Source: Erysipelotrichaceae bacterium (GTDB lineage Bacteria; Bacillota_I; Bacilli_A; Erysipelotrichales; Erysipelotrichaceae). Taken from it: DNA of 64,000 nucleotides. A program made the translations under genes and the position numbers. The stretch is from assembly GCA_017432545.1 (NCBI GenBank), contig JAFRJA010000045.1:3198-67197 (forward strand). Direction: 5' to 3'. The number at the start of each line of letters is the position of its first letter. The first letter of the stretch is position 1. Positions 16,355-49,236 of the stretch are shown here, piece by piece. The notes under the pieces are model-generated. The model was not told the origin of the DNA. It searched no databases and saw only the letters and a list, made by a program, of their open reading frames with translations.

Positions 16355-16430
16355 AAAACACTAAAACGTATACGATCGGTTGAATTACCAAAGCTTGCTA
16401 TGTTGTAATTTCACGATGATATTCAAAAAT

Positions 16431-21779: not shown

Positions 21780-21802
21780 ATGTCATCCGTAGCCCAAAAC
21801 AG

Positions 21803-23582: not shown

Positions 23583-23586
23583 GCTT

Positions 23587-33818: not shown

Positions 33819-33857
33819 AAAGTACTTAAACTGAAAATTTAGACTTCAGTAAAATCA

Positions 33858-33896
33858 GACGGATACATCAGAAATGATGGTCCGTCTTTTTTTTTT
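33858..33896 (+). terminator. intrinsic terminator after gap
   Basis: AGACGGA ... TCCGTCT stem followed by a T10 run. Confidence 0.8.
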
Positions 33897-33956
33897 GAAT
33901 GAGAGTCATGTTGAAGAGCGGTATAAATAACTGAGGTTTTGGATCATCTTGATCTG

Positions 33957-34036
33957 AGAACAGAATTTAGCGAAAGAAGGTTTCCGGTTTTATCATCTGA
34001 AGTCTTTTTAATACAATGAATAGAGAAAGACGAAAA
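33957..34036 (+). repeat. IRU copy (3' half: degenerate hairpin plus TTTTTAATACAATGAATAGAGAAAGACGAAAATGA)
   Basis: Aligns with 44650-44712 and 37485-37545. Confidence 0.55.
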
Positions 34037-34052
34037 TGATATTTGCGAGTAT

Positions 34053-34286
34053 ATGAAAAGAGTACAGTTAAAGGAACTTGGCTTTGAATCAAGGGATGAG
34101 GCGATTTCCTTCTTAAAAAAATTATGGAGTGAAGAGAGTGTTAATTGTCCAATCTGTGGAAACAGGCTGTAACTTCTTCATAAAAAGGCCAAGAAAAGCA
34201 ATTGCGATTGGATGTGCAGATATTGTGACGAAACATTCAAGACGATACATCTGCTTGATGAAGTTAATGAGAAAATGCTGAATTGA
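34053..34286 (+). pseudogene. small zinc-ribbon protein gene with an in-frame TAA at codon 40
   Basis: MKRVQLKELGF...CPICGNRL*LLHKKAKKSNCDWMCRYCDETF.... Two CxxC pairs straddle the stop at 34170-34172. Confidence 0.5.
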
Positions 34287-34298
34287 TAGCTTCAATAT

Positions 34299-35213
34299 TT
34301 ATTGATTTCCAAGAAATTCCAATAACTCTTTTTCAGCAGGTGCATTTCGTGCACCTGATTTTGTTATTGATAAAGCAGCTGCGGCATTGGCATATTTAAG
34401 ACAGTCATGTAATGAGCATTGATGAACCAAGCCGTAAATAAAGCCCGCATTAAAGACATCGCCCGCTCCCAAAGTGTCTTTGATTTGAACTTTATATCCT
34501 TCGACAAAGGATATTTCGTTATTCGCCTTATAATATGCTCCATGTTCATTATGAGCTATGACGACCTGATTATTTAAAGTGTTCAAAGCTTCATGGATAT
34601 CTTTTTTGCCGGTTATAAACAAGATATCATCTTCAACGGAACCTAAAAGATAATCCGTTAAAGCAATGACTCTATTAAGATACTTGCGATCTTTGTTTCC
34701 GGTTTCATTGCGGAAGTTAAGATCAAGCAGGATCCTGATTCCTTTTTCATGCGCTTTCTGCAAGAAAGAAAGGATACTGCTGGCTGCAGGTTCATCAAAT
34801 AGCATCATCCCATTTGTTAAGATGTATTCAGTGTCCTTTAGATCGATAGTATTTAGATCATCTTCATGGATGGCTAAATATGAGGGTTCCTTTTTAGGCA
34901 TCAGAAACGGATGACGGTCATTGTTTTCATCGATGACCACCAGTATCTGGGTCGTTACTAAATCAGGATCAAGGTCAAAATAAGAAGTATCCACGCCGTT
35001 TTCTTTGAATTCCTTTAACATCTTCAGACCATAGATGTCTTTACCGGCTTTGCCACAAAAGGCGGTATTGACATTAAACTTGCCTAAAAAGACGGCACTA
35101 TTGGCGCAAGCTCCGCCACAGCTGAAAGTAACCTCCACTTCTTTAACAAGTGATTCGCCATAGGGAATGATGATATCGGCGCAACTGTCGCCAAGACACA
35201 ATACTTTACTCAT
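34299..35213 (-). CDS. PfkB-family carbohydrate kinase
   Basis: N-terminal GDSCADII, C-terminal DTLGAGDVFNAGF (PfkB signature 2) and an anion hole. Confidence 0.85.
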   Translation of the reverse strand: MSKVLCLGDSCADIIIPYGESLVKEVEVTFSCGGACANSAVFLGKFNVNTAFCGKAGKDIYGLKMLKEFKENGVDTSYFDLDPDLVTTQILVVIDENNDRHPFLMPKKEPSYLAIHEDDLNTIDLKDTEYILTNGMMLFDEPAASSILSFLQKAHEKGIRILLDLNFRNETGNKDRKYLNRVIALTDYLLGSVEDDILFITGKKDIHEALNTLNNQVVIAHNEHGAYYKANNEISFVEGYKVQIKDTLGAGDVFNAGFIYGLVHQCSLHDCLKYANAAAALSITKSGARNAPAEKELLEFLGNQ

Positions 35214-35892
35214 TGATTAATGCAAAGGCCTCTTTAGCATTCTGAATAAATGCTTTGACTTTCTCGATATTTTTGACGGAACTACCATCAGGCAGGATAT
35301 CACTGGTTTTGGTAAAAGAATCCACGCCCCAGGGTCTGACTTTCAAAATAGCTTCTTTAACGTTTTCAGGTGATAAACCTCCGGCAAGGATCACCCGGCA
35401 TTTGGCCTGTTTGACGATAAGGGCATCGATATCCCAGTCGTTGGTAAATCCGGCAGCTCCAATACCGTTGATATTCTTATCTACTGAATCTAAGATCAGC
35501 ATATCGACAAATTCGGAGTAATATGAGGCCTGTTCAATTGAGCTTTCATCGATTATTCCGATCGCCTGTAAAACCTCGATACCGTCAACCAGTTCCTTGA
35601 TCCTTTTTACGAACTCTCTGGTCGCATAATAATCATAACCGCAGATATGGATGACATCAGGTTTAAGATAAACTACCGGATCATATAACTGTTCCTCACT
35701 GTCGGTTACGCAGATCAAAACCTTTTTGGCTTTATCGCCAATGGCATCAAAGATCTCTTTTGCTTTGTCGATCGAAACCTGATTGGGCAATTTGACACCG
35801 GTATCGATCGCCAAGCCAATGCGATCTGCACCGGCAGCGATACAATCAAGAGCTTCCTGAACGGTCTGAATGGAATATATTTGTGTGATCAT
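35206..35892 (-). CDS. TIM-barrel protein, phosphoribosylanthranilate isomerase (TrpF)-like
   Basis: VQEALDCIAAGADRIGL ... ILAGGLSPENVKEAI..VRPWGVDS pattern, as in PRAI-family proteins. Confidence 0.55.
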   Translation of the reverse strand: MITQIYSIQTVQEALDCIAAGADRIGLAIDTGVKLPNQVSIDKAKEIFDAIGDKAKKVLICVTDSEEQLYDPVVYLKPDVIHICGYDYYATREFVKRIKELVDGIEVLQAIGIIDESSIEQASYYSEFVDMLILDSVDKNINGIGAAGFTNDWDIDALIVKQAKCRVILAGGLSPENVKEAILKVRPWGVDSFTKTSDILPDGSSVKNIEKVKAFIQNAKEAFALINE

Positions 35893-36162
35893 TAAACTCT
35901 CCTAATTAATTATCGATAAAGCATTCTTATCAGTTTTTAAATAAATGAAGATATCCGTTTATTCAAGTATAATCCCATCTTTAACGCTTTGAAATATAAA
36001 TAAAAAGAAAGGCTGAAATGGATTCTGGTTAATTAAAGCATAAGTTAACAAACATGATTCAGAAAATGAATATTTCAGGAGAAAACGCGATCTTTCAATA
36101 ACTTCAATGATGTGTTATTAATAGTGTATAATTGACCTATAAATTAAACGGAGAACAGCACA

Positions 36163-37419
36163 ATGAAAAAGACTATTAAACTCGTTTTAAGCATCTTTAT
36201 TATAGTTACGTTTCTGGCTGCTTGCAGCAACAGAAATAGCGCTGAGACAGGTATGCCTTCAGGTTCCGAAAACAGCGCCAATTCTGTTTTGGCTGATGAT
36301 TCAGATGACAATGACAAAACTGCTGCTGATGCCTGGGTTCTGATCTATGAAAAAACCAGACAGCGTGAAGATGAGGTTTCAGGGATGTACAGTGATTCCT
36401 ATTCCTGGGAAAAGGATGAAGTCAATAAGCAGATGTGCCATTATCATGTAAAGATAGCCGACGGAGTTCCTTATCAGAAATCGATTTTTGCGATGACCAG
36501 CACACTGCCGCCCGAATACGGTGACCCCGGTTCCAAGATCACTTTTGATATTGCGACAACTCTGGTAGAAACCGATATTGCCAAGTATTATTTCGGCGAT
36601 TCATGTTCTGTACAACTTGGTGCTCCGGATAAGGAACTGGGCATTGCCGGCTATTATTTCTGGAATATCCTTGATGAAGGAAAAGAATCAAGAACCAATC
36701 CAGATTCTGTTGGTGCCGGCACAGGGGGAGATGATATCGATTACGGGTCAAGCTGTAGCGTATTCTGGCATTTCCCGAATAACCCGCAACCCGGAGACAG
36801 ATTCTCTGTTTATTTTATGAGTTTTGGTGTTGAAACCGAGTGGTGCTATGAATTTAATGCGGTATCAAGTGATGATGGTACAAAAGAACCTGTAGCATCA
36901 ACTGACGGGGATGAACCGGTTCCCGTTATTAATGATGACATTCAGCAGGGGATCTACGCAGATGGCAGCGATCTGAACTTTGATGACTTTGCATTCTATA
37001 ACGAAGTCTATGAGCATGGCATTCCGGATGGTGCTTACTATCCGGAAACGCAGTATGCGGCAGGAAGCTGGCGATATGAGCTCTTTGTCTATAAGGAGGG
37101 CAGCTATGACACCGACTATATGGAATTGGGTTATGCAGATATAAATATCGAAGAAAAATCGAAAGCAGCGGTACTGACACTGCATCCGCGTATCGGCAAT
37201 GATGGCTATGAGTCTTTCCCTGTGACAGATGAAGAAATCGGCTATGAGCCGTTTAACGGGGAACTTGATGAACTTTCCGGTCTGACTTTCTATGGCAATA
37301 ATCTTGATCTGTATTTGAATTACTATTATGCCTATGAAGGTCGCGAATACATCATTGGTTCGCTGTTTAAGTCCAGTGACCTTTTTGCGGGAATCATTAT
37401 GATCAGAGGACAGGATTAA
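36163..37419 (+). CDS. lipoprotein of unknown function (418 aa)
   Basis: Signal FLAACS. Asp/Tyr-rich body. Confidence 0.65.
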   Translation: MKKTIKLVLSIFIIVTFLAACSNRNSAETGMPSGSENSANSVLADDSDDNDKTAADAWVLIYEKTRQREDEVSGMYSDSYSWEKDEVNKQMCHYHVKIADGVPYQKSIFAMTSTLPPEYGDPGSKITFDIATTLVETDIAKYYFGDSCSVQLGAPDKELGIAGYYFWNILDEGKESRTNPDSVGAGTGGDDIDYGSSCSVFWHFPNNPQPGDRFSVYFMSFGVETEWCYEFNAVSSDDGTKEPVASTDGDEPVPVINDDIQQGIYADGSDLNFDDFAFYNEVYEHGIPDGAYYPETQYAAGSWRYELFVYKEGSYDTDYMELGYADINIEEKSKAAVLTLHPRIGNDGYESFPVTDEEIGYEPFNGELDELSGLTFYGNNLDLYLNYYYAYEGREYIIGSLFKSSDLFAGIIMIRGQD

Positions 37420-37440
37420 CGGACATCCATCGGTTTAGGA

Positions 37441-37547
37441 ATGTTTCATTAAAACATAAATAAGCGAACGCAATTCGTTCTAACAAAGGCTTCTGTTTTT
37501 ATAATTCGAAGCCTTTTTATTACAATGAAATTAGAAAGACAGATCGG
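37441..37547 (+). repeat. IRU copy (variant core, hairpin AGGCTTC..GAAGCCT, TTTTTATTACAATGAAATTAGAAAGACAGATCGG)
   Basis: Shared sequence with 21803-21861 and 44605-44714. Confidence 0.65.
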
Positions 37548-37577
37548 TATTATCTTACGAATTGGAGGATTATCAAA

Positions 37578-37937
37578 ATGAAAGAATTAAAGAAAGTTTT
37601 AACTGTATTGGGTGTTGTTTTGCTTGTACTGACTGTATCGGCCTGCAATGTCGGCAAAGAAGATGTTGATATTGTTGGCGGATGGGAAACGGTTGAAGAT
37701 GGAACGATCACCCCAGAGCTGCAGGAGCTCTTCAACAAGGCGATAGAAGAACTGGATGGAGTCGACTACACTCCGATCAAACTGCTGGAAACGCAGGTCG
37801 TTGCGGGAACCAACTACAAGTTCCTTTGTGATGCGACAGTTACTTCTCCGGGTGCGGGAACTACACAGGCCATCGTTACGATCTATGAAGATCTTCAGGG
37901 AAATGTGGAGATTTTGGACATCCAGGATGCGGAATAA
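37578..37937 (+). CDS. stefin/cystatin-like lipoprotein (putative cysteine-protease inhibitor)
   Basis: Lipobox LTVSAC. The mature part has IVGGW ... TPELQEL ... TQVVAGTNYKF. The QVVAG loop and flanks match animal stefin A (TQVVAGTNY) as recalled. Confidence 0.65.
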   Translation: MKELKKVLTVLGVVLLVLTVSACNVGKEDVDIVGGWETVEDGTITPELQELFNKAIEELDGVDYTPIKLLETQVVAGTNYKFLCDATVTSPGAGTTQAIVTIYEDLQGNVEILDIQDAE

Positions 37938-37987
37938 CAGCTGGATCGGGAAAACAATCTGAACATATTCCTGTTTTCCTTTTAGCC

Positions 37988-38075
37988 GAAAATGTGTACA
38001 TTTATGAACTGTATTCAAAGGCAATTAAAAGAATGAGGATTCTGGAAACAAAGCCAGAATCTTTTTCATATCATA
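37988..38075 (+). repeat. IRU copy
   Basis: AAAATGTGTACATTTATGAACTGTATTCAAAGG..AGAATGAGG, then GATTCTGG-AAACAAAG-CCAGAATC followed by TTTTT. Confidence 0.65.
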
Positions 38076-38163
38076 TTAGAATTCAATAAATACGATTAAA
38101 CAATAATCGGACTTATGTTTTAATCGAAAAATAGTGTATAATGCTGTTGAAAGGAAGCAGATC

Positions 38164-39417
38164 ATGTATATCAGCAGAGACATCGAAAATACAATCAAGG
38201 AAACATCACGGTATTTTCAGGTAATCACTATTTACGGCAGCAGACAGGTCGGAAAAACAACTACGGTTGACTATCTGTTTGGCGATACTTTTCGATTTGT
38301 TTCATTAGACAACACATCCGATTATGATCTGGCTAATGATAATCCAAGAGGTTTTCTTGAAGCATACAGTTGGCCATTGATCATTGATGAGGTTCAGAAG
38401 GCTCCAAAGCTTCTGAATGAAATAAAGAGGATCGTCGATGAGCAGAGAAGAATATGGATGAGAAACAATCAGAAAAGAGAACTGATGTATATCTTGACCG
38501 GCTCGAATCAGTTTGACCTACAGACCCAGGTTTCAGAGTCTCTGGCGGGAAGGACCGCAGTTTTAGAAATGGCTGGTCTGACTCAGCTGGAAAAGAAGAA
38601 CGTAAGGGGAAGGGTGTTCAGGATCGACATTCCGGAATTGCTGAAAAAGGAAAGAGAATGCGATCTGTATCAGACAAGAGAAGAGATCTTTCAGCGCATC
38701 TTTGAAGGAGGCTACCCGGATATAATAACCGGGGAAACACCAAGAGAGATGTATTTCAGATCATATGTCGACACGTATATTGAAAAAGATATCAGGAAGC
38801 TTATTTCTGTCGACTACGAATCCCAATTCAGGAAATTCATGGAGATCATTGCCTTACGAACAGCACAGGAACTGAACTATGAAAATATCTGCAGCGATGC
38901 CGGAATCAGTGTTCCGACATGCAAAAGATGGATCTCCATACTGGAGACTTCCGGTATCATCATCTTGTTGCAGCCGTATATGGCTAACATGTCAAAGAGA
39001 ATCATCAAGGCTCCAAAACTGTACTTCATGGATACGGGACTATGTTCTTATCTGTGCAAATGGCCAAATGCTCAGATGCTGCAGGATGGTGTTATGAGTG
39101 GAGCTTTCTTTGAAACATATGTGATCAGTGAAATCGTGAAGAGCTACTACAATGGCGGTATCAATCCAAAAGACTATCTGTATTATTACAGGGATATCGA
39201 TAAGAAGGAAATAGACTTGCTGATCGTTGAAAACGGTACGATTTATCCTATTGAAATAAAAAAATGCATCTCGCCAAATAAACCTACGAAAAACTTTAAT
39301 GTCTTGACTAAATACAATCAGCCGATAATGCCGGGCCTGGTTATCGATAACACGGATAAGATCAGACCGATAAACGAGAACGTCTACAGTTTCCCCGTTT
39401 CATTGTTAGGCATATAA
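38164..39417 (+). CDS. AAA+ ATPase with DUF4143-type C-terminal domain
   Basis: Walker A GSRQVGKTT, Walker B LIIDEVQ, and a typical AAA_14/DUF4143 layout. Confidence 0.8.
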   Translation: MYISRDIENTIKETSRYFQVITIYGSRQVGKTTTVDYLFGDTFRFVSLDNTSDYDLANDNPRGFLEAYSWPLIIDEVQKAPKLLNEIKRIVDEQRRIWMRNNQKRELMYILTGSNQFDLQTQVSESLAGRTAVLEMAGLTQLEKKNVRGRVFRIDIPELLKKERECDLYQTREEIFQRIFEGGYPDIITGETPREMYFRSYVDTYIEKDIRKLISVDYESQFRKFMEIIALRTAQELNYENICSDAGISVPTCKRWISILETSGIIILLQPYMANMSKRIIKAPKLYFMDTGLCSYLCKWPNAQMLQDGVMSGAFFETYVISEIVKSYYNGGINPKDYLYYYRDIDKKEIDLLIVENGTIYPIEIKKCISPNKPTKNFNVLTKYNQPIMPGLVIDNTDKIRPINENVYSFPVSLLGI

Positions 39418-39435
39418 AGATTGGAGCAATGTCTG

Positions 39436-39515
39436 ATAAAGTATACATTTACGAACATAATTCAAAGAATGAGGACTTCGGGAATAAAAACCGGAGCCTT
39501 TTCATATAGAATGGA
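39436..39515 (+). repeat. IRU copy
   Basis: ATAAAGTATACATTTACGAACATAATTCAAAGAATGAGG, then a hairpin followed by TTTTC. Confidence 0.65.
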
Positions 39516-39552
39516 ATCATAAAGAGAATCAAAACATAAAGGAGATGATAAT

Positions 39553-40107
39553 ATGCTGATCGACATTACACTGCGAATTACACCTCAGATGGCAAAGGAT
39601 GCCCAGGGCAATGAGAAATGTGCTCTAGTCGGTCATCTTGGAACCCATTTCGATGTCATGAATAAGGAGTTCCCTTTGGAATATACCAGAAGGAAAGGGA
39701 TCGTATTCGATGTATCAGGTATTATAGACAGAGATATTGAATCAACAGATATCGATATCAATAAAGTTAATGAAGATATGTTTGTGGCTTTCTATAGCGG
39801 TTTTATTGAAGAAGCCGGATATGGAAGTGCGGTCTATTTCCATGAACATCCCCAGCTTTCCAGAGAACTGATCGGGGCATTGGTCGAAAAGAAGGTATCG
39901 ATCATCGGCATCGATTTCGCCGGTGTCAGAAGAGGTAAGGAACATCCTCAAACCGATCAGTACTGTGCCGATCGAAATGTATTCATCATCGAAAACCTCT
40001 GCAACCTTAAGGAACTCATTGACAAAGAAAACATAGTTATCAACACATATCCCATGAGTTATGCAGAGATGACAGGACTTCCCTGCAGAGTTGTGGCTGA
40101 AGTGTAG
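39553..40107 (+). CDS. cyclase-family protein (kynurenine formamidase-like fold)
   Basis: VGHLGTHFDV resembles the HxGTHxD motif of putative cyclases. Confidence 0.55.
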   Translation: MLIDITLRITPQMAKDAQGNEKCALVGHLGTHFDVMNKEFPLEYTRRKGIVFDVSGIIDRDIESTDIDINKVNEDMFVAFYSGFIEEAGYGSAVYFHEHPQLSRELIGALVEKKVSIIGIDFAGVRRGKEHPQTDQYCADRNVFIIENLCNLKELIDKENIVINTYPMSYAEMTGLPCRVVAEV

Positions 40108-40123
40108 AATTGCTGTTTTCGGC

Positions 40124-40216
40124 TAGTAGGGATAGTTCATAAAACTGTAGATTTGCGAATGTTATCCAATCTTTGAAGGCTCCAGGTTCATAATCCGGAG
40201 TCTTTTGTTTATAATG
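40124..40216 (+). repeat. IRU copy (full length)
   Basis: TAGTAGGGATAGTTCATAAAACTGTAGATTTGCGAATGTTATCCAATCTTTGAAGG, then a hairpin followed by TTTTGTTTATAATGA. Confidence 0.7.
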
Positions 40217-40304
40217 AGAAGAGGCCTTGCGACGCCACGTTTTTTCGATATGCTGAACAAGGTTGAAAAGAAACTGAACGAAATGGAAGCTGGAGGAACA
40301 CTTC

Positions 40305-41438
40305 ATGTTTAATCATCACGATATCACCCGGAATGCCTTCATGCTGCACGGGCCGCTGGCTCATCACGGTTATGACTGGTGGTGGCATTCCCTTACGGCA
40401 CAGGACGCAGAGACAGGCGAAGATAAACCGTTCTTCATTGAATTCTTCGTCTGCAATCCGGCGCTTGCAGAGGATGAACCGGTACTGGGACAGTTGCCGG
40501 AAAATCAGGCTGCGGGAAAGAAACCATCTTACCTGATGGTCAAGGCAGGCACTTGGGGAGAGGATCACTGTCAGCTGCATCGATTCTTTGCGTGGAAAGA
40601 CGTAAAGCTGCATGGTGATGCGCCGTACAGCGTCGAAGCTTCGGACTGCTTTGCCTGCGAGACGGCGCTGGTGGGCAGTATCCTTATCACAGAGGAGGAA
40701 GCGGCAGCACATCCGGAGTGGATGTGCGACGCCGGGGATCTTACATGGGATCTGACTGTTGATAAGCAGATTGCTTTCAATGTGGGTTACGGAGCCAGCA
40801 AGCCGCTTCGAGATGTGGAGGCCTTCGCCATGTACTGGCATGCGGAGGGCATGAAGAGTGCCTACAGCGGGACGATCACTTATAACGGCAGACAGTATAC
40901 GGTCACGCCTGAGAAAAGCTACGGATACGCGGACAAAAACTGGGGTCGAGATTTCACGAGCCCCTGGGTGTGGCTTTCTTCAAACTGTCTGTTCAGTAAA
41001 AAGACCGGAAAGCAGCTTCAGAGCAGTGTCTTTGACATCGGCGGCGGACGGCCTAAGATCTACCTTGTCCCGCTGGACAGAAGGTTATTGGGCGTCATCT
41101 ATTATGAAGGCAAAGAGTATGACTTCAACTTCTCCAAACTCCACTTGATGGTGAAGACGGAGTTTTCCTTTGAGGAGCAGGATGAGCTGGTACACTGGAA
41201 CGTGCGGCAGGAAAACATCCATGCTGTCATGGAGACCGAGGTCTTCTGCCGGAAGAAGGACATGCTGCTGGTCAATTATGAAGCGCCGGACGGCAGCAAG
41301 AAGCACAACCGGCTCTGGAATGGCGGAAACGGCTGGGGTACGGTGAAGCTCTATGAGAAGAAAGACGGAGGTCTGGAGCTTGTGGACGAGATCGAAGCTA
41401 CGCATATCGGCTGCGAATACGGGGAGTATGATCGATAA
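40305..41438 (+). CDS. tocopherol-cyclase-like family protein
   Basis: YGYADKNWGRDFTSPWVWLSSN resembles the EKNWG..FP..W.W motif of the tocopherol cyclase family. GGAGGA RBS. Confidence 0.5.
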   Translation: MFNHHDITRNAFMLHGPLAHHGYDWWWHSLTAQDAETGEDKPFFIEFFVCNPALAEDEPVLGQLPENQAAGKKPSYLMVKAGTWGEDHCQLHRFFAWKDVKLHGDAPYSVEASDCFACETALVGSILITEEEAAAHPEWMCDAGDLTWDLTVDKQIAFNVGYGASKPLRDVEAFAMYWHAEGMKSAYSGTITYNGRQYTVTPEKSYGYADKNWGRDFTSPWVWLSSNCLFSKKTGKQLQSSVFDIGGGRPKIYLVPLDRRLLGVIYYEGKEYDFNFSKLHLMVKTEFSFEEQDELVHWNVRQENIHAVMETEVFCRKKDMLLVNYEAPDGSKKHNRLWNGGNGWGTVKLYEKKDGGLELVDEIEATHIGCEYGEYDR

Positions 41439-41500
41439 CGTTCTTAGACGAACGGGATTGGAGGCCAAGGGGCGATGCTTTGTATGACAAATTCATATTT

Positions 41501-41590
41501 GTAGAGATGGTTCATAAAAGCGTACATTTATGAATGGAATACAGAAATAATAGATCAAAGTCCTGAAATTCAGGGCTTTTTATAATAAGA
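41501..41590 (+). repeat. IRU copy
   Basis: GTAGAGATGGTTCATAAAAGCGTACATTTATGAATGG ... CCTGAA-A-TTCAGG followed by TTTTTATAATAAG. Confidence 0.65.
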
Positions 41591-41638
41591 ATTTCAATGC
41601 GTTCTGCTCTACAAGTTGGTACAGGTATGCTGATACCA

Positions 41639-41658
41639 ATATATATATATATATATAT
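41639..41658. repeat. (AT)10 dinucleotide microsatellite
   Basis: Direct reading of the sequence. Confidence 0.95.
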
Positions 41659-41902
41659 TTATAACAGTCATAACGAAAAGATCCGATTATTTATCAGACG
41701 ATACATTATATTGATGATCAATTGATGAAAAGATGATGCTTTTTGTTTATAAACCGTTTTATTAAAAATTCATTAAATACAAAACTACAAACAGCATCAA
41801 CAGAATCGCAATACAAAACTGATAAAGAAAAAAAGTCTGACTTCTTTTGGGTAAGAAATCAGACAGAGAATAATAATGCGGTTGTAAGTATTTTTAAGAA
41901 CT

Positions 41903-42581
<679 letters not shown>

Positions 42582-42812
42582 AACTGTTGAAATGATCAAA
42601 ATCGTTGCTCCTTTAATCGGTAAACATGATCGGGTGGGAATGATACCATAATCAAAAGTTTTAAAATAATGGCACTAACCTGACATGATATACCAAAAAG
42701 GCTAAACAGGATATGAAGAAATATTCATACCCTGTTTTTATTTTTTGCCTATTAAGAAAACAGCGACCATTTCATACTGATAAAGTATAATTGTATTTGA
42801 AAAGAGCGAATC

Positions 42813-43064
42813 ATGAAAAACGAAATTGTAATATTCAGTGATGATGGATTGAGCCTCGAAGTTCAGGTATCTCCCGATCGGGAAACGGTTTGGCTCAGCC
42901 AGAAGCAAATGGAGGATCTTTTTGAAGTTTCTCATGCAACGATCAGCGAGCACATCAGCAATATTCTCAGAGTTGGAGAATTGGATGAGACTTCTGTCGG
43001 TTTTTCCGACAGAAGTACAGGAGGCCGAAAACCAAGGATGAGAAAACAAACAATGGTTCGTTAA
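42813..43064 (+). pseudogene. N-terminal fragment of a RhuM-family protein
   Basis: IVIFSDDGLSLEVQVSPDRETVWLSQKQMEDLFEVSHATISEHISNI matches the RhuM N-terminus. 83 aa, against about 330 aa expected. Confidence 0.6.
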
Positions 43065-43131
43065 ATTTTGTTGAAAAAGTAGATTTGAACCCAAAGACAG
43101 AAATACTTTCAACGCAAATGAGCAAGGCTGA

Positions 43132-43175
43132 CTAGGATAGTTCATTAAAGTGTAGATTTACGAACACAATTCAGG
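43132..43175 (+). repeat. IRU copy (5' core only)
   Basis: CTAGGATAGTTCATTAAAGTGTAGATTTACGAACACAATTCAGG. Confidence 0.65.
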
Positions 43176-43207
43176 ATTCACCATAGTTCTATCATGGAAA
43201 AGACCAA

Positions 43208-43236
43208 TTGACATATAAAGTGGTATTATGTATAAT
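43208..43236 (+). promoter_or_regulatory. consensus sigma-A promoter for the PIN-RHH operon
   Basis: TTGACA, 17 nt spacer, TATAAT. Confidence 0.7.
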
Positions 43237-43243
43237 ACCATTG

Positions 43244-43663
43244 ATGAAAGCAGTTATAGATACAAATGTCTTATTAAGCGGTTTAAGAAGCCGGAACGGT
43301 GCATCTTATCAGGTATTGAGGATGCTCTACGAAGACAGATTCAAAATCGTCATCTCGGTTCCGATGATCTTGGAATATGAAGAAATTCTTAAAGACAAAC
43401 TTGATAGAAGTATCTATAGCAATGATATTATCGATCAGCTGCTTGATTCGTTGTGTGCGATAGGAGAAAAATCAAAAGTCTTCTACCTGTGGAGACCATA
43501 TCTGAAGGATCCGTTTGATGATCATGTTCTGGAACTGGCCCTGGCATCGGAATCAGATTACATTGTCACATACAACAAAAAAGATTTAATGAAAGCAGAG
43601 AATCTCGGTATCAAAGTTATCAATGCCAAAGAATTTCTGGAAATACTGAGTAAGGAGGAATAA
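43244..43663 (+). CDS. PIN-domain toxin (type II TA)
   Basis: MKAVIDTNVLLSGL..., acidic residues at conserved spacing (DDHVLELA, YIVTYNKKD). Confidence 0.8.
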   Translation: MKAVIDTNVLLSGLRSRNGASYQVLRMLYEDRFKIVISVPMILEYEEILKDKLDRSIYSNDIIDQLLDSLCAIGEKSKVFYLWRPYLKDPFDDHVLELALASESDYIVTYNKKDLMKAENLGIKVINAKEFLEILSKEE

Positions 43664-43664
43664 G

Positions 43665-43901
43665 ATGAGTGCATTAAGTGTAAGATTGCCTGATTCGGTT
43701 CATGAAGCGGTAAAGGCTCTGGCTGAAAAAGATAATATATCAATCAATCAGTTTATTTCTTCTGCTGTTATCGAGAAGATAACTGCGATGGAAACGGAAC
43801 GGTATCTGTCAATGCGTGCAGCAAGAGGATCAAGAGAAAAGCTCGGTGCGATCCTGGATCTTGTTCCGGACAGCGAACCTGACACGTTTGATAAATTGTA
43901 A
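43665..43901 (+). CDS. ribbon-helix-helix antitoxin
   Basis: LSVRLPDSVHEAVKALAEKDNISINQFISSAV is an RHH. 1-nt gap after the toxin gene. Confidence 0.7.
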   Translation: MSALSVRLPDSVHEAVKALAEKDNISINQFISSAVIEKITAMETERYLSMRAARGSREKLGAILDLVPDSEPDTFDKL

Positions 43902-44043
43902 ACCGAATATTGTTAAGAAGTCTTGTTGCATAAAACAAGGCTTTTTATTGCTCTTTTTGGCTTTGTTCAAATAGGCTAAGGCTATTTGGACCAAGTTTTC
44001 TCTTAACAATTTATTAATATCAAAAAAATCCTCATATCTTTAA

Positions 44044-44110
44044 GAATGTTATCCAATCTTTGAAGGCTCTGAATTCATAAATCCGGCGCCTTTTGTTTAT
44101 AATGAAATCA
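44044..44110 (+). repeat. IRU copy (3' half)
   Basis: GAATGTTATCCAATCTTTGAAGGCTC is identical to 40157-40182. A hairpin follows, then TTTTGTTTATAATGAAATC. Confidence 0.65.
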
Positions 44111-44134
44111 AAGGATTGATCAGAATCTGCAAGT

Positions 44135-44560
44135 ATGGTTGGAAAAGTAAAACGCCTTTTATTTCATCCGGTGTTCTGGATAATAGTCAATGCAATCTGT
44201 TTGATGGCGAATTTTAACTATTTTGTTTTCGGTAATTCTTATGGAATACCGTGGATAAATCTCCCGATATCCATTATGTATATGATTTATATGGTTTTAT
44301 TTGCCTGCAAGGGGAACGATAGATTAATTATTGTTATTGGCATTATCTATGTCGTTCTGGGACTTTTAGGTTTCCCTGTCTCTAAATATTCAATGGTAGC
44401 CGATTGGCTGATTGTACCATCGATCCTTTTCATTGCACCATATTCAGGAATAAATCATATTATTAAGTCAAATTCTATATGCTGGGTTTTATATGCGGGA
44501 TTTGGAATTGTATTGATCGTGATTGCGCATATCAGGCGTAGAATAAACAGTAGGTTTTAA
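44135..44560 (+). CDS. polytopic membrane protein of unknown function (141 aa)
   Basis: Four hydrophobic segments. Weak RBS. Confidence 0.5.
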   Translation: MVGKVKRLLFHPVFWIIVNAICLMANFNYFVFGNSYGIPWINLPISIMYMIYMVLFACKGNDRLIIVIGIIYVVLGLLGFPVSKYSMVADWLIVPSILFIAPYSGINHIIKSNSICWVLYAGFGIVLIVIAHIRRRINSRF

Positions 44561-44604
44561 TTGATTGCGCTATCAAGACAATGCTGATGCACCATGCTCA
44601 AGTA

Positions 44605-44714
44605 TGTAGAGATGGTTCATCAAAGTATAAGTTTACGAACATAAATCAAATGAAGGTTTCTGGTTTATTCATGGAAACCTTTTTAATACAATGAAATCAG
44701 AAAGACAGATCGAT
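44605..44714 (+). repeat. IRU copy (full length, closest to consensus)
   Basis: TGTAGAGATGGTTCATCAAAGTATAAGTTTACGAACATAAATCAAATGA, then AGGTTTC..GAAACCT followed by TTTTTAATACAATGAAATCAGAAAGACAGATCGATAG. Confidence 0.7.
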
Positions 44715-44728
44715 AGTTGTGAGGAAAT

Positions 44729-44845
44729 ATGAAATATATAATCAGACAGGCTGCTGCATATGATGAAAAAAGGATCTGCGAATTATACCTTGAAATGCTG
44801 CAGACGATATATCATACAAAAGGTGTTGAAGGCTACCAAGTCTAA
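44729..44845 (+). pseudogene. 38-codon stub resembling a GNAT acetyltransferase N-terminus
   Basis: MKYIIRQAAAYDEKRICELYLEMLQTIYHTKG.... It ends prematurely and is followed by another IRU. Confidence 0.35.
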
Positions 44846-44865
44846 AGCATAATATGTCCTTTTAT

Positions 44866-44965
44866 CTACAGATATAGTTCATCAAAGAAACGGATATTTA
44901 CCCACTTTGATGTTAGAAGAATCTTTCTTACTCCAAAATAGTGTAGATTTACGACCGATATACAA
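44866..44965 (+). repeat. IRU core split by an insert of about 50 bp
   Basis: CTACAGATATAGTTCATCAAAG at 44866-44887 and AATAGTGTAGATTTACGACC at 44937-44956, separated by unrelated sequence. Confidence 0.55.
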
Positions 44966-45125
44966 TAAATCATTACGGAACTGATCTTGATATGCTAGAG
45001 TGAAATCAATTCAGAAGCCGTAAAAGAAAAGACAACCATTAAAAGATAAGGACACTATAAGCTCTGATAAACATATTTATATATCGGAGCTTTTTCTTTT
45101 ATACAAAGCTCCAGGAAGGAGATTA

Positions 45126-45509
45126 ATGGAGTATACAAGATTCGGAGAGGAAATGAGAGTGCTGAGGACCAGAAGACATCAAAGTCAGAAAGATATGGCT
45201 GAAGTTCTTGGAGTCACCAAAAGTTTTCTTTCTTCAGTTGAAACGGGAAGAAGATCTATCCCCAAAGGATGGATCGATATCATTGTTGATCATTATCATC
45301 TGAAGCCTTATCCAAGACAGATCCTTGAGGATGCTGCAAGAGCTTCAAGGAACTATATCAGAATCGCTTTGAAAGGGCAGCCGAATTACAGAAGGAATCT
45401 TGCTGTCGGATTTGAAGACAGTTTTGAACAGATTGATGAGGAAACATCGCAAATGATGCTGAAGCTGATGGGAAAGGATGTTTCAGAAGATGATGGTGGT
45501 GGTTCGTAG
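45126..45509 (+). CDS. XRE-family HTH protein
   Basis: RHQSQKDMAEVLGVTKSFLSSVETGRRSIP. AAGGAG RBS. Confidence 0.75.
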   Translation: MEYTRFGEEMRVLRTRRHQSQKDMAEVLGVTKSFLSSVETGRRSIPKGWIDIIVDHYHLKPYPRQILEDAARASRNYIRIALKGQPNYRRNLAVGFEDSFEQIDEETSQMMLKLMGKDVSEDDGGGS

Positions 45510-45635
45510 AATCGTGCATCACGATCCTGCGTTTATTGAAGAGTGTTATTTCAGGATAACTGACTGTATTTACAAAGAGTTATTAATTTTATAAAATAAG
45601 TATGCAACCAATATCTAGTTGCAAGAAAGGAATTC

Positions 45636-45902
45636 ATGCCTAAAAAGAAGAATCTGATTGAAAAATTGTATCGCAAGCCTTATCCAAAGAACTTTACCGT
45701 AAGAGAGCTTGATGCCCTGATGGGCAAATGCAACTGCACCAGGTTCCAGGGAGGAAGGGGATCAGGGATCGGATATGTCCATAATCCAAGTAAAAGGATC
45801 GTACAGTTTGATGGTCCTCATCCGGGAAATGAATTATACAAATACCAGATAGAGAAGATAAAGAAGTTTATTGATGAAATAGGAGAAAAGGAGACGGATT
45901 AG
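45636..45902 (+). CDS. hicA: HicA-like mRNA interferase toxin
   Basis: 88 aa with GGRGSGIGYVH ... PHPGNEL pattern, immediately upstream of a HicB-like gene. Confidence 0.65.
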   Translation: MPKKKNLIEKLYRKPYPKNFTVRELDALMGKCNCTRFQGGRGSGIGYVHNPSKRIVQFDGPHPGNELYKYQIEKIKKFIDEIGEKETD

Positions 45903-45904
45903 AT

Positions 45905-46255
45905 ATGAAGTCGGACATGATGAAATACAAAGGCTATAGAGCTACCATTTCTTTTGATGAAGAAGACAAGATATTTGTCGGTGAAGTTTTTGGCATTGCT
46001 GACTCGCTGAACTTCCATGGCCGTTCTATTGATGAACTCGAAGAGGCTTTTCATGATTCCATTGAGAACTATCTTGAGATCTGTGAGAAGATCGGAAAGA
46101 ATCCACAGAAAGAATTCTCTGGAACTTTCAATGTCAGGACCACACCGGCTTTACATGAACAGGCGGCTGAATATGCTGCGGATAACGGAATCACCCTGAA
46201 TCAGACGATTTCCAGAGCTTTGGAATCGTTCCTTGGTAAACAGGTAAAAGCTTAA
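45905..46255 (+). CDS. hicB: HicB-family antitoxin with C-terminal RHH
   Basis: YKGYRATISFDEEDKIFVGEV ... FHGRSIDELEEAF ... FSGTFNVRTTPALHEQA. Confidence 0.8.
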   Translation: MKSDMMKYKGYRATISFDEEDKIFVGEVFGIADSLNFHGRSIDELEEAFHDSIENYLEICEKIGKNPQKEFSGTFNVRTTPALHEQAAEYAADNGITLNQTISRALESFLGKQVKA

Positions 46256-46334
46256 TGTCAATTAAATATGATACGGGATCTCTATATGAGATCCTTTTAT
46301 TATGTGGTAGGTTGACTAAGTTTACCTAAAAATG

Positions 46335-46370
46335 GTCAACTTTGTATACATTTACGAACGCTGTTCAAAT
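46335..46370 (+). repeat. IRU copy (core only, diverged)
   Basis: GTCAACTTTGTATACATTTACGAACGCTGTTCAAATT. Confidence 0.5.
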
Positions 46371-46467
46371 TGGTAACTTATCTTTGCGATCAAATGCATG
46401 GAATAATTAAACACGACTTAATGGATCCTTAATAATTATTCGATAGAAGAATCGGTACAATTATTTT

Positions 46468-47232
46468 ATGAAGAATATGACAAAAATATTGATTATTTTT
46501 CTGTTGCTGATATGTGCCGGTTGCTCACCGGTTTCTGATGACAAGTATTACGCGATCGACCATTTCTACTTCTATGAAGAAGGTGATGAATTCAAAACAG
46601 CCTTTAACAAGGCCACTATCGACGTCTATAACTGGTATTCAGGCATTGAAGGTGAAGATGGCGTCTATATCCTGCATAGCGAACATTACAACGATGAGCT
46701 GCTTGATTCCTGGCGGGATAACAGGGTTTTTGGCAATATCCCTGATAAGGAGTTCTGGTATTTTGCCGTTTCTGAAAACTATCTGTATGACAGAGGCTAT
46801 GAACTAAACAAGGATGATAAGCAACTGATCAGAGCAGGAGTCCGCTTATATCTATTGCCTGATAAGCTTTCTAAAGAGGAAGGCGATCAGATGAAGGAAT
46901 TTCTAAAAGAGGATGCACTCTATGGCCTTATTGCTGAGCCGCTGATCAAGACAAGCTTTGAAACAGATCAGGAAATCGAATTCAAGACATATCATTCCGA
47001 TATCAGTCTCGAGACAGAGGAAGAAGGGGAGATCCGCAATCCCATCATCTTTGTCTGCAGCAGTGAAAATATGAGATTCTTTGAATCAGAGAGCCTGATC
47101 GCTACAGGCAAAAAAGACAGCTATATCAAGCTGACAAGGGATGTATATGAAAAATATGCCGGAGATAATCTTCCGGAAAAACTCAAGGAAAGAAGTTTCG
47201 CTTTCCTTCCTTTAAACAAGATCAAAAACTGA
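46468..47232 (+). CDS. lipoprotein of unknown function (254 aa)
   Basis: Signal LLLICAGCS. Confidence 0.65.
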   Translation: MKNMTKILIIFLLLICAGCSPVSDDKYYAIDHFYFYEEGDEFKTAFNKATIDVYNWYSGIEGEDGVYILHSEHYNDELLDSWRDNRVFGNIPDKEFWYFAVSENYLYDRGYELNKDDKQLIRAGVRLYLLPDKLSKEEGDQMKEFLKEDALYGLIAEPLIKTSFETDQEIEFKTYHSDISLETEEEGEIRNPIIFVCSSENMRFFESESLIATGKKDSYIKLTRDVYEKYAGDNLPEKLKERSFAFLPLNKIKN

Positions 47233-47409
47233 TTTACTCCGTATTGACCAAGCTGCTTATTATAATTCGACAGTTTTTGAACTTGATTCAATGAAAAACG
47301 ATCTCCGTTTTTATGATACGGAGTCTTTTTTTGTAATCGGGATGTAGAGGATAAATCATCTTTCTTTGGATGGCTTGTGTCATAATTAAAAAAACGAGGA
47401 GACAAGAGT

Positions 47410-49110
47410 ATGGAAAAGTTTAAAGATCTGGAATATATCCGTCCAAACTTTGAGGATACGGAAAAAGATATCTATGCGGCTTTGAAAGAATTCAATGAGG
47501 CAAGTGATTATGATGCGGCGAAGGAAGCTCTGTTTAAGAAACAGGAGATCAGCCGCGAATTTATGACGATGTCTTCGATCGCCCACATCCGCCACGATGT
47601 CGATATGGCCGATCCTTTCTATGATGAAGAGATTCAATATCTCAACAGCGTTTCACCAAAACTGGCGGTCGTAAACAAGGAATTCAATCTGGCATTGGCC
47701 AACTCGAAGTTTCGAAAAGATTTCGAAGAAGAATTCGGCGATCAGCTGTTCAAACTGCTGGATGCGGATATCCGCTGTAACAGCAGTGAAGTCATTGAAG
47801 AAAGAGTCAAAGAAGCCGGACTAGTGAATGAATATTCCAAGATCGCTGCTTCCTGCAAGACTGTCTTCAGAGACGAGGAATGCAACTTCTATGGATTACT
47901 GAAACACATGCTGTCGACAGATCGTAACGAAAGAAAAGAGGCGATGGAGAGCTGGGCGGCTTTATATGAGTCGGTATCCGATCAGCTCGATGACGTCTAT
48001 GGCCGTTTATGTGCTGTGCGCCGTGAGATCGCCGAAAAGCTGGGTTTCGAAAGCTATATCGACCTGGCCTATCTTTCCCGCCATCGTTTCGACTATACAC
48101 CTGCCGATATCGAAAATTTCAGAAAAGCAATCGTCAAATATGTCGTACCTCTTGCCGCAAAGATCCACGAAGCTCAGAAAGAGAGACTTGGTCTTGAAAA
48201 GCTGGAATACTATGATGAGCAGCTGTATTTCAAGGACGGCAACTCTACGCCGGACAAGGATACGGCCGGCATGATAAAAGCGGCAACTGCTATGTATCAT
48301 GAATTGTCAAAGGAGACGGGTGAATTCTTCGATTTCATGGTCGAATATGATCTCTTTGACCTGGAGACCAAGCCAAACAAACGCCTGGGTGGCTATTGCA
48401 GCGGCTTACCCAAATATAAGGCACCTTTCATTTTCTCCAATTTCAATAAGACCAGTGCCGATACGGAAGTCCTGACGCATGAAGCGGGACACGCCTTTGA
48501 ATCCTATATCGCCAACCGGAATCAGGTTTTGGCGGAATATACCCATTCCACTTCGGAGATCAACGAGATCCATTCCATGGCCATGGAATTCTTTACGGAA
48601 CCCTGGTATCCGCTCTTTTATCCGGAGGGTGAAGGAAAGCAATACGTCTATGAACATCTTGCGGAGAGTTTTGCTAACATCACATATCTGGTCAGTGTCG
48701 ATGAATTTCAGCATCGGGTCTTTGAAGATGATCAGCCTTCAGCTCAACAGTTGCGTCAGGTCTGGAAAAACATCGAAGAAAAGTTCATGCCCTGGCGTAG
48801 CTATGGGGATAACGATTTTTTGAACAATGGCGGTTTCTGGATGCAGAAGCAGCACATCTTCATGTATCCGTTCTACTATGTGGATTACGCTCTGGCGATG
48901 ATCTGTGCTTTGCAGTTCTATCTGCGGATGCGCAAGGATAGGGAAGGGGCTTGGAGCGACTATATGAAACTTTGTTCATTGGGCGGATCATTGGGTTACT
49001 TCGATCTGCTTAAACAGGCGGGACTTAAAAATCCGTTTGAAGAGGAGACGATCAAGGAAGTTGCTGATGGGGTCGCAGAAGTCCTGCAGGAGATGGAAGA
49101 GACGCTGTAA
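47410..49110 (+). CDS. pepF: M3-family oligoendopeptidase F
   Basis: HEAGHAFE zinc motif plus a downstream E; length and layout match M3B peptidases. Confidence 0.9.
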   Translation: MEKFKDLEYIRPNFEDTEKDIYAALKEFNEASDYDAAKEALFKKQEISREFMTMSSIAHIRHDVDMADPFYDEEIQYLNSVSPKLAVVNKEFNLALANSKFRKDFEEEFGDQLFKLLDADIRCNSSEVIEERVKEAGLVNEYSKIAASCKTVFRDEECNFYGLLKHMLSTDRNERKEAMESWAALYESVSDQLDDVYGRLCAVRREIAEKLGFESYIDLAYLSRHRFDYTPADIENFRKAIVKYVVPLAAKIHEAQKERLGLEKLEYYDEQLYFKDGNSTPDKDTAGMIKAATAMYHELSKETGEFFDFMVEYDLFDLETKPNKRLGGYCSGLPKYKAPFIFSNFNKTSADTEVLTHEAGHAFESYIANRNQVLAEYTHSTSEINEIHSMAMEFFTEPWYPLFYPEGEGKQYVYEHLAESFANITYLVSVDEFQHRVFEDDQPSAQQLRQVWKNIEEKFMPWRSYGDNDFLNNGGFWMQKQHIFMYPFYYVDYALAMICALQFYLRMRKDREGAWSDYMKLCSLGGSLGYFDLLKQAGLKNPFEEETIKEVADGVAEVLQEMEETL

Positions 49111-49121
49111 TAAAGGATCAG

Positions 49122-49149
49122 GCAGGAATCACATGGTTCCTGCTTTTTT
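49122..49149 (+). terminator. intrinsic terminator after pepF
   Basis: GCAGGAA-TCACATGG-TTCCTGC followed by TTTTTT. Confidence 0.8.
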
Positions 49150-49236
49150 GTAACGATAAAAGACTTTAATTCGATCTTAAGAAGAAGCTGAACAAGATGA
49201 TGCCTGAGTGGCAGGGGATTGGTTTATAATCTAATT

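Follow-up and report, generated by a model that had tools for sequence, protein, structure and literature searches.

In the analysis of a 64,000-nt stretch of contig JAFRJA010000045.1 from an Erysipelotrichaceae bacterium (assembly GCA_017432545.1; hereafter the window), we found that the gene gap is followed by a variable segment of about 13 short gene modules (positions 33819–49218, + strand), separated from one another by a single intergenic repeat unit of about 100 bp. The constant part of this unit is a 26-bp near-palindrome; breakpoints between related contigs fell at its centre, and one module bounded by it, HicAB, was present in four different contexts. We give about an even chance to the reading that the array consists of mobile gene cassettes moved by a site-specific system, with the 26-bp palindrome as the recombination site and with each cassette carrying its own terminator and promoter. 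The palindrome unit is probably the mark of a cassette-exchange system for which no counterpart has been described in Gram-positive bacteria.

The repeat unit and the variable segment

The array region was read at 33.7–47.6 kb, and both this reading and a repeat finder revealed one intergenic repeat family separating the modules. A 19-nt core pattern with up to three mismatches had seven matches in the window and none in 100 dinucleotide-preserving shuffles. A full-unit nhmmer profile built on six full copies detected 13 + strand copies or partial copies, starting at 33952, 36026, 37436, 37983, 39426, 40124, 41499, 43134, 44034, 44605, 44932, 46343 and 47274, and a core-only hidden Markov model (HMM) built on 31 copies recovered the same set. 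The shuffle control and the two profile searches thus agree that the repeat family proposed by an earlier, sequence-only reading of this DNA is real. Ten of the eleven start coordinates given there were confirmed; at the eleventh, 44866, we found only a left-flank-like relic, the supported copy starting at 44933. That reading had also placed the copies within 33897–47409; two more copies were found outside, at 20946–20988 and 21802–21862.

The near-palindrome has a 12-2-12 layout, GTTCATAAAAGT-RT-ACATTTAyGAAC, and its arms, GTTCATAAAAGT and the reverse complement of ACATTTATGAAC, agree at 11 of 12 positions. Alignment of 30 non-redundant core copies from the window and other contigs gave the consensus ATTGTTCATAAAAGTGTAGATTTACGAACATAATTCAAA, with the TA at core positions 14–15 invariant in all 30. 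The right arm and the ATTCA next to it were more conserved than the left arm, which was unrecognisable in several copies, and substitutions in the left arm were not accompanied by compensation in the right arm. As RNA, the common ACGAAC variant of the core folded at only -3.6 kcal/mol. Because the arms vary independently and the RNA fold is weak, the palindrome looks like a protein site on duplex DNA and not like a conserved hairpin.

Beyond the core, roughly two thirds of the copies in the window have a linker, then a hairpin rich in GC between an A-tract and a T-run, and then a TACAAT or TATAAT box; the alignments agree with the four-part unit (palindrome, linker, GC hairpin with T-run, TACAAT/TATAAT tail) originally described. 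Eight of nine hairpins folded at -9 to -14 kcal/mol, with z values of about -2 to -5, and their stem sequences differ, which means that the hairpin structure is being maintained. Judged from the folding energies, the hairpin with its T-run is most likely an intrinsic terminator. A promoter scan paired a -35-like hexamer in the hairpin loop with a -10-like box in four units, and in full units the core lies about 60 nt upstream of the -10-like box. Promoter-like sites overall were not enriched in the region, and we therefore regard the promoter assignment as suggestive. The part behind the core falls into at least three subfamilies, which are interleaved in the array and also present in other genomes. 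Copies within the array are 60–80% identical to one another, which argues against a recent burst.

The palindrome is extragenic, positioned 5–120 nt past stop codons, and every copy is oriented like the gene that follows it, in the window and on the other contigs alike. All copies are direct singlets without inverted doublets. Within the window they are confined to two patches, the array at 33.9–47.4 kb and a pair bracketing an open reading frame (ORF) at 21042–21779, and all 15 are on the + strand. Scans with the full-unit and core profiles found no copies in about 47 kb of conserved window genes, and the repeat was likewise absent from relatives sharing the gap locus and from all their backbone loci (about 200 kb). 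An even spread downstream of core genes, with which the sequence-only reading had considered its interpretation incompatible, was thus not seen in the window or these loci.

Nucleotide homology between the window and two relatives (L073 and L071; L-numbers are labels of the compared loci and contigs) ended at 33809–33812 and resumed at 49220, at the gene for an Amidase_6 protein. This homology gap, from the gap stop codon to Amidase_6, defines the variable segment as 33819–49218 and puts pepF inside it, as the last module. By this nucleotide comparison, the patch is a hotspot insertion downstream of gap. The relatives, with Gap 94% identical to that of the window, showed three different downstream states. 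In L078, gap directly adjoins Amidase_6, which constitutes an empty site; in L073–L076, gap is followed by an M3 peptidase unrelated to window PepF (23% identical), GtrA, GT2 and then Amidase_6; in L071, it is followed by three small ORFs, Amidase_6 and then GroES/EL. Gene content downstream of gap is therefore not invariant among relatives; such invariance was the second outcome that would have spoken against a cassette array.

The gene pepF had been taken for a housekeeping gene that borders the array on the right, which the resumption of homology only at Amidase_6 contradicts. Orthologues of window PepF (83–86% identical) are located elsewhere in relatives, in unrelated contexts without the repeat; we therefore rejected pepF as a stable backbone gene or synteny anchor and regard it as cargo itself. 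A search with the last 360 nt of gap and the downstream region revealed no gap-derived direct repeat in the window. In the relative L071 no different, analogous repeat was found, just a tandem gene duplication.

Breakpoints at the dyad centre and the HicAB module

A strict core pattern gave three single matches in 185,579 species-representative genomes, two of them in metagenome-assembled genomes of rumen Erysipelotrichaceae. The named proteins closest to those of the window likewise belong to metagenome-assembled genomes of this family, and the source organism is an uncultured rumen Erysipelotrichaceae member. A looser pattern returned 48 stretches from a metagenome collection, about a dozen of which were supported by the profile, all on rumen contigs. 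These contigs have cores, oriented like the gene, on either side of single genes or of one operon, and the cargo is unlike that of the window: an operon of BglG, phosphotransferase system and ADP-ribosylglycohydrolase genes, an EamA transporter, an acyltransferase, a GNAT protein, a serpin and a CmpB-like membrane protein. One core copy, at 3297–3322 of L010, lies between convergent genes and has no downstream gene.

Comparison of related contigs revealed, as the central piece of evidence, that strain and species breakpoints coincide with the palindrome centre, as expected if modules are exchanged at the repeat. L008 and L030 are 99% identical over 1.9 kb up to ...CCATAAAAGTATA, the shared stretch closing with ...AAAGTATA; they then continue with GG... 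and CA..., respectively, and are unrelated beyond. L080 and L085 are 97% identical over 1.3 kb up to ...TTTTTGTGTA, followed by TCTTTGCGAAC... in one and GATTTAAGAAC... in the other, and are again unrelated beyond. L010 and L027 exhibit the opposite arrangement: they are unrelated before the core (...CC and ...GT) and 98% identical from ATAGATTTATGAAC on, with the shared stretch opening with ATAGATTT.... Jointly, the three pairs place the exchange between core positions 12 and 16, a 4-nt window at the dyad centre. A mismatched core of 26 bp is too short for efficient RecA-type exchange, and exchange at so specific a position thus points to a site-specific enzyme.

The HicAB module was present in four contexts: the window, L022, L080/L086 and L085. 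HicB was identical or 98% identical among them and the DNA 83–89% identical; in every context the module had a core on each side, and the neighbours differed on both sides. The left arms differed along with the upstream neighbour, whereas the centre and the right arm were as similar as the cassette itself. A look-up with the RHH antitoxin for a second mobile cassette returned only the window-like context.

Copies, cargo and neighbouring elements

The copies of the array, all on the + strand, differ in completeness. Unit 1 (33952–34040; nhmmer E=3.8e-8) is partial, with a right-arm relic, linker, weak hairpin (only -3.8 kcal/mol) with T-run and TACAAT tail; it contains a promoter-like TTATCA-16-TACAAT at 33990–34017 and lies upstream of a zinc-ribbon pseudogene. 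Unit 2 (36027–36094; core HMM E=3e-5, full-unit HMM E=1.6e-4), with a degenerate core, lies upstream of a gene for a 418-amino-acid lipoprotein. Unit 3 (37437–37548; E=2e-18) is full length, with the variant core GTTTCATTAAAACATAAATAAGCGAAC, a hairpin of -10.9 kcal/mol (z=-3.8) and a TACAAT...GACAGATCG tail, and precedes a gene for a 119-amino-acid lipoprotein. Its stretch 37456–37546 is 88% identical to 2715–2805 of L030, with unrelated flanks on both sides. Unit 4 (37983–38075; E=7e-14), located upstream of the AAA_14/DUF4143 ATPase gene, has a degenerate left arm; present are the centre, the right arm, the linker and a hairpin of -13.7 kcal/mol (z=-5.1). Unit 5 (39426–39528; E=2e-20), upstream of the cyclase gene, has centre, right arm, linker, hairpin (-12.6 kcal/mol) and a TAGAAT tail.

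Unit 6 (40122–40225; E=7e-24) is full length and lies upstream of the tocopherol-cyclase-like gene; its hairpin folds at -13.7 kcal/mol, and TTCATA-17-TATAAT gives 10 of 12 promoter matches. Unit 7 (41498–41592; E=1.4e-14) is full length, and its hairpin folds at -11.5 kcal/mol (z=-4.6). The DNA behind it is decayed and holds a GH1 fragment, an HTH_22 gene and a RhuM fragment; a (TA)10 microsatellite also lies there, at 41640–41660. Only the core remains recognisable in unit 8 (43128–43175), upstream of a PIN/RHH toxin-antitoxin pair, with the top core score of the window (core HMM E=2.4e-10). Unit 9 (44034–44110; E=2e-11), upstream of a gene for a 141-amino-acid membrane protein, comprises a right-arm relic, linker, hairpin and TATAAT tail with TTCATA-18-TATAAT, and is 86% identical to the corresponding stretch of unit 6. 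Unit 10 (44603–44712; E=5.5e-20; hairpin -10 kcal/mol), again full length, lies upstream of a 38-codon ORF that had been called a GNAT stub and has no Pfam hit.

Units 11 and 12 delimit the HicAB module. Unit 11 (44929–44969; core HMM E=1.3e-3), with centre and right arm, bounds the XRE-HicA-HicB module on the left; this is where homology to L022, L080 and L085 begins, and the upstream DNA differs in all three. Unit 12 (46333–46369; core HMM E=1.7e-4), with centre, right arm and linker, forms the right boundary and lies upstream of a gene for a 254-amino-acid lipoprotein; the equivalent cores in L080 and L085 are the point where their 97% identity ends. Unit 13 (47274–47335; E=5.7e-4), upstream of pepF, is partial and retains a right-arm relic, linker, hairpin (-9.1 kcal/mol) and T-run. 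A weak core-like sequence, AAAGTGTAGATTTGTAAATATT, at 54431–54452, after an ABC transporter gene and before the tRNA gene at 54615–54686, was not significant (E about 0.9).

Eleven of the 13 modules open with a + strand gene 25–160 nt from the unit; the sole exceptions, on the - strand, are the PfkB-PRAI pair and the GH1 fragment. Gene labels were cross-checked through precomputed Pfam hits on identical metagenome contigs. The original calls agreed with these hits for PfkB, PRAI, AAA_14/DUF4143, Cyclase, Tocopherol_cycl, the GH1 fragment, HTH_22, PIN_3, RHH/HicB-like, HTH_31 and HicB; the labels lipoprotein, membrane protein, zinc ribbon, GNAT stub, RhuM fragment and HicA are carried over from the sequence-only reading and have no Pfam hit here.

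The cargo is of varied origin. The tocopherol-cyclase-like gene looks horizontally acquired. It has 53% GC and 85% protein and 77% DNA identity to a gene in a tightly packed operon of Clostridia type, and the homology, beginning 13 nt before the ATG and ending 7 nt before the stop codon, is confined to the ORF; two units thus now enclose one ORF that came from another lineage. Acquisition of this gene together with the RhuM fragment from one donor operon was rejected, since the RhuM similarity is only 33%. On the higher-GC contigs of Clostridia type (L063–L070, e.g., L063 1–9143), small enzyme genes unrelated to one another form a long series in one direction, in which stop and start codons overlap; the order is AlbA_2, adenine glycosylase, nitroreductase, C_GCAxxG, DUF503, patatin, tocopherol-cyclase-like, 2-thiouracil desulfurase, RhuM and two aldo-keto reductases. 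Across many Clostridia, homologues of the tocopherol-cyclase-like gene of this series are 80–87% identical.

The two copies outside the array flank ORF 21042–21779, also on the + strand. The first (20946–20988; core HMM E=1.6e-9) is a core copy upstream of the ORF; the second (21802–21862; E=5e-7), downstream of it, comprises core, linker and the start of a hairpin, and has an intact homologue at 1044–952 of L027. Its hairpin is interrupted at 21862 by an insertion sequence (IS)-like end, GGCTCTCTTAAAT.... Ends of this kind, GGCTCTCTTAAAT[AT]AAACGTGGG..., are present in three copies, at 20460 and 21862 (+) and 22249 (-), beside short transposase-like fragments.

This ORF and its flanking cores lie inside one of two tandem integrative elements at the tRNA gene 25007–25079 (- strand), in the part of the window from 1 to 25079. 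Each element encodes a tyrosine integrase (10257–11669 and 23503–24987), the two being paralogues with 52% identity, and a 17-nt repeat from the tRNA 3' end, GGCTGCGGATGAAGGAT, is located just after each integrase gene, at 11859–11875 and 25004–25020. The left element also carries a type IV secretion system coupling protein gene (1828–4071) and a gene for a CHAP-domain protein, and the right element ParA/ParB-like genes and a Schlafen/AlbA_2 gene. In a non-coding stretch after the Schlafen/AlbA_2 gene, at about 16200–16360, there are two TTGTATACACyTGGTGTATACAA-like palindromes, possibly an origin or operator of the element. In L071, the tRNA 3'-end motif (GGCTGCGGATGAAGGA) occurs at 4454 and 7721, 3.3 kb apart and bracketing small ORFs (GNAT, SnoaL and others), which makes the tRNA site an integration hotspot in that species too.

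Further observations concern the compared contigs. An IS66 element (TnpB and a DDE transposase) is present at 921–3500 of L047 and missing at the corresponding position, 4166, of L008, the two contigs being otherwise 99% identical; this polymorphism is unrelated to the repeat. Positions 1–219 of L080 are inverted relative to 186–404 of L085, with the junction GGATCGATC lying within a GH1 gene; a fold-back artefact of the assembly is the probable cause. Perfect or near-perfect single 26-bp cores, e.g., GTTCATAAAAGTATACATTTACGAAC, are located at 5777–5806 of L052 (identical in the overlapping contig L023, 145–174) and at 465–494 of L056, surrounded by extensive non-coding DNA of low-GC contigs that come from other metagenomes, and without the hairpin; they may be chance matches or solitary sites in related bacteria.

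Proposed mechanism, alternatives and implications

Tentatively, and at slightly less than an even chance, we propose that rumen Erysipelotrichaceae possess an as yet undescribed cassette system that is functionally integron-like and mechanistically distinct, with a 12-2-12 duplex site, an unlinked recombinase of the serine or of the Xer-like or another tyrosine type, and a terminator and promoter in each cassette. A recombinase encoded elsewhere would bind both arms and exchange strands at the centre; it could be a small serine recombinase, which the 12-2-12 layout fits, or equally well a tyrosine recombinase whose overlap region is short. By recombining, two cores in direct repeat would release one module as a circle with a single hybrid core, and the reverse reaction would insert the circle at any core. 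The left arm would move with the upstream module, and the centre and right arm with the downstream module; such a partition of the arms would account for left arms being often degenerate and right arms conserved, and for homology changing over at the centre. In most copies the part behind the core (linker, hairpin with T-run, TAyAAT) would terminate transcripts of the upstream module and provide the promoter of the module's own gene, which would make each cassette an insulated, self-expressed unit. What we infer here is the existence of the recombinase and of the circle, and the activity of the unit as terminator and promoter, the latter from folding energies and consensus matches. The cassette interpretation of the sequence-only reading came through the three comparisons on which it had been staked, namely the distribution of the repeat, the gene content of relatives and the position of breakpoints; we regard it as partly supported, since neither a recombinase nor a circular intermediate was found, the roles as terminator and promoter are putative, and its right border had to be moved.

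The core has the geometry of a small-serine-recombinase site (about 26–28 bp, 12-bp inverted arms, central dinucleotide). The hix and gix sites of Hin and Gin and res site I of Tn3/gamma-delta are likewise 26-bp sites with two 12-bp imperfect inverted arms and exchange at the central dinucleotide, and direct repeats of such sites would give deletion or resolution. Known serine recombinase systems differ in that they invert one segment or resolve cointegrates and do not form cassette arrays. No serine recombinase gene was seen in the window or the compared loci, among whose Pfam hits there was no Resolvase-domain protein, and arm-like or accessory half-sites behind the core were not consistent (0.93 per unit vs 0.49 in shuffles).

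Several points weigh against a site-specific cassette system. The arrays have no linked recombinase gene among the Pfam hits of 33.8–49.2 kb and of the repeat-bearing loci. The two upstream integrases score far below the NCBIfam cut-offs for IntI and Xer, and their 17-nt tRNA repeat is unrelated to the core. No core-like sequence, as a candidate primary attachment site, was found at the empty sites of relatives. Contigs of the same strain (identical PepF, Gap, HicB or RHH with the same neighbours) all keep one cassette order, which implies that shuffling is not frequent on that timescale. Units of the same subfamily (88% identical) adjoin unrelated genes on both sides, as an independently mobile repeat would, and the breakpoint evidence comes from only three high-resolution contig pairs. 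The sequence-only reading had noted that no integrase lies inside the patch, and we found none there. The window integrases of the tRNA-site elements were considered as the cassette recombinase and rejected: they act at the 17-nt tRNA repeat, are neither IntI nor Xer, and are unrelated to the integrase beside the L008 array.

The alternative that fares best, although we consider it rather unlikely, is a lineage-specific dispersed intergenic repeat of the repetitive extragenic palindrome/bacterial interspersed mosaic element (REP/BIME), RUP or Correia type, or an old miniature inverted-repeat transposable element (MITE), which would supply terminators or promoters and accumulate where insertions are tolerated, polymorphism arising through illegitimate or short-homology recombination. 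Like REP/BIME, RUP, BOX and Correia repeats, the unit is a short, structured, extragenic repeat placed after stop codons, with an imperfect palindrome, a hairpin that may terminate or stabilise transcripts, and promoter-like ends; T-run hairpins are classic for intergenic repeats. It has discrete ends, and subfamily copies lie beside unrelated genes, as in unit 3 and L030 and in units 6 and 9. Many copies are partial or decayed, and the lack of a linked recombinase among the Pfam hits would be expected of such a repeat. In contrast to REP-type repeats, however, the unit is restricted to variable DNA, being missing from the conserved intergenic regions of the window and the backbone loci of relatives, and it marks the borders of exchangeable modules in a single orientation, that of the following gene, without inverted doublets.

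A transposition partner was also not seen. There was no Y1_Tnp hit, as expected of a Y1 transposase of the REP-associated (RAYT) type, among the scanned or Pfam-annotated genes of the window (its last ~5 kb and small ORFs apart) and of the repeat-bearing loci; no DDE transposase was associated with the arrays, only IS66 and IS-like fragments that interrupt them. No consistent shared k-mer flanked five full units, i.e., there was no consistent target-site duplication, although this is a weak test given the fuzzy unit edges, and the unit ends GTAGAGATGG... and ...GACAGATCG are not inverted copies of one another as terminal inverted repeats would be. The divergence among the array copies does not suggest a burst of transposition. 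A further point against a dispersed repeat is that three breakpoints fall in one 4-nt window of a core too short and too diverged for RecA-type exchange.

Serial integration by small elements that use the host Xer recombinase at a dif-like site, as in arrays of integrative mobile elements exploiting Xer (IMEX) and in the plasmid dif (pdif) modules of Acinetobacter, appears improbable; it would be a special form of site-specific recombination that needs no enzyme of its own. Such modules resemble those of the window in carrying accessory or toxin-antitoxin genes bounded by short palindromic sites, with inverted arms around a short centre, and in not encoding the enzyme or having a dedicated recombinase nearby; direct att-like arrays with one conserved and one degenerate arm are typical of serial integration. 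The sites of pdif modules are inverted, whereas all 15 copies here are direct and are extended by a hairpin and a promoter-like tail. Furthermore, the array does not lie at the replication terminus, GC skew being positive across the window with constant gene orientation and no strand switch, and the core resembles the Bacillus subtilis dif sequence only weakly, at about 13 of 28 positions. Neither the dif site of the host, for which an 11-6-11 layout would be expected, nor xer genes lie in the window.

Still less probable is that the palindrome is an operator through which a dimeric transcription factor co-regulates accessory genes sharing one regulatory region: half-sites spaced by two helical turns in a 26-bp dyad could plausibly bind a protein dimer, and the distance of about 60 nt between the palindrome and the -10-like box would suit such a role, but this explains neither why unrelated genes of different origin share one 100-bp unit nor why homology switches at the dyad centre, the terminator intervenes between the palindrome and the putative promoter, and the L010 copy between convergent genes has nothing downstream to regulate.

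[quoted passage not shown] Shared with the window are co-oriented, mostly single-ORF modules of unrelated function, toxin-antitoxin pairs, many unknown genes, a structured repeat of about 60–130 bp between modules that is similar within a lineage, a hypervariable chromosomal region and ORF-limited cargo homology. The unit is nevertheless not a canonical attC, as previously noted. It lacks the R''/R' core sites (RYYYAAC/GTTRRRY): in the 30-copy consensus GTTCATAAAAGTGTAGATTTACGAAC, GTTCATA has a C at position 4, where a purine is needed, and TACGAAC misfits RYYYAAC. It also lacks the single long bulged hairpin, as single-stranded DNA folds of five full units (two on both strands) gave two or three small hairpins without end-to-end pairing and with z near 0 in three of the five. 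The crossover maps to the centre of a duplex-type palindrome, in contrast to the GTT triplet at the edge of the integron cassette, and the unit is mostly located upstream of the cargo gene with a terminator-like hairpin and a -10-like box, whereas integron cassettes are mostly promoterless. No IntI, which in an integron sits with attI and Pc next to the array, is present here: there is no recombinase in 33.8–49.2 kb, and the nearest integrase, at 23503–24987, reached only 25 bits on the IntI model TIGR02249, whose cut-off is 265. By definition CALINs have no IntI, yet they need attC sites.

Tandem integrative arrays, such as the staphylococcal cassette chromosome (SCC) at rlmH and tycheposon or tRNA islands, likewise have cargo modules beside a housekeeping gene with an att-like repeat between them, and the tRNA 25007–25079 array of the window is of this kind. 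Their repeats, however, copy the 3' end of the target gene, of which the window holds no second copy for gap, and the modules of the window are single genes without their own integrase. L010 provides an exception to the lack of gap-derived copies: at 1705–1770 it contains a 66-nt remnant of the gap 3' end and terminator, followed by the GtrA/GT2 backbone, with repeat-bearing DNA on the other side in which two cores flank a serpin gene. In that species the 3' end of gap may thus have been a target of integration or the place of a rearrangement.

Searches for a known counterpart of the unit were negative. At gathering thresholds, Rfam returned two tRNAs only in the whole window, and nothing at E<=1 in 33800–47450. 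BLAST of the full unit against plasmids and phages gave no match, and pattern scans of IMG/VR gave only five chance matches without profile support. A literature search by topic and by core sequence found nothing relevant.

Gene-cassette arrays formed by site-specific recombination are known mainly from integrons. If the cassette reading is true, the array would represent a second, independent cassette system, here in a lineage of Gram-positive gut and rumen bacteria, and accessory-gene organisation of this kind would have evolved more than once. In the survey of PMC4889954, no Firmicutes genome was found to contain a complete integron; the niche of cassette capture would then be filled in a phylum without integrons. 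The system would also offer a new recombination site and enzyme for study and tool building and, should the functions as terminator and promoter prove real, a naturally occurring design for portable genes that are insulated and self-expressed. The observation that homology of cargo to a donor operon gene stops at the ORF borders bears on how cassettes are made. Finally, repeat-rich islands are easily lost from metagenome-assembled genomes, and since the strict pattern had only three matches in the 185,579 genomes, the accessory gene pool of these rumen bacteria may be under-sampled.

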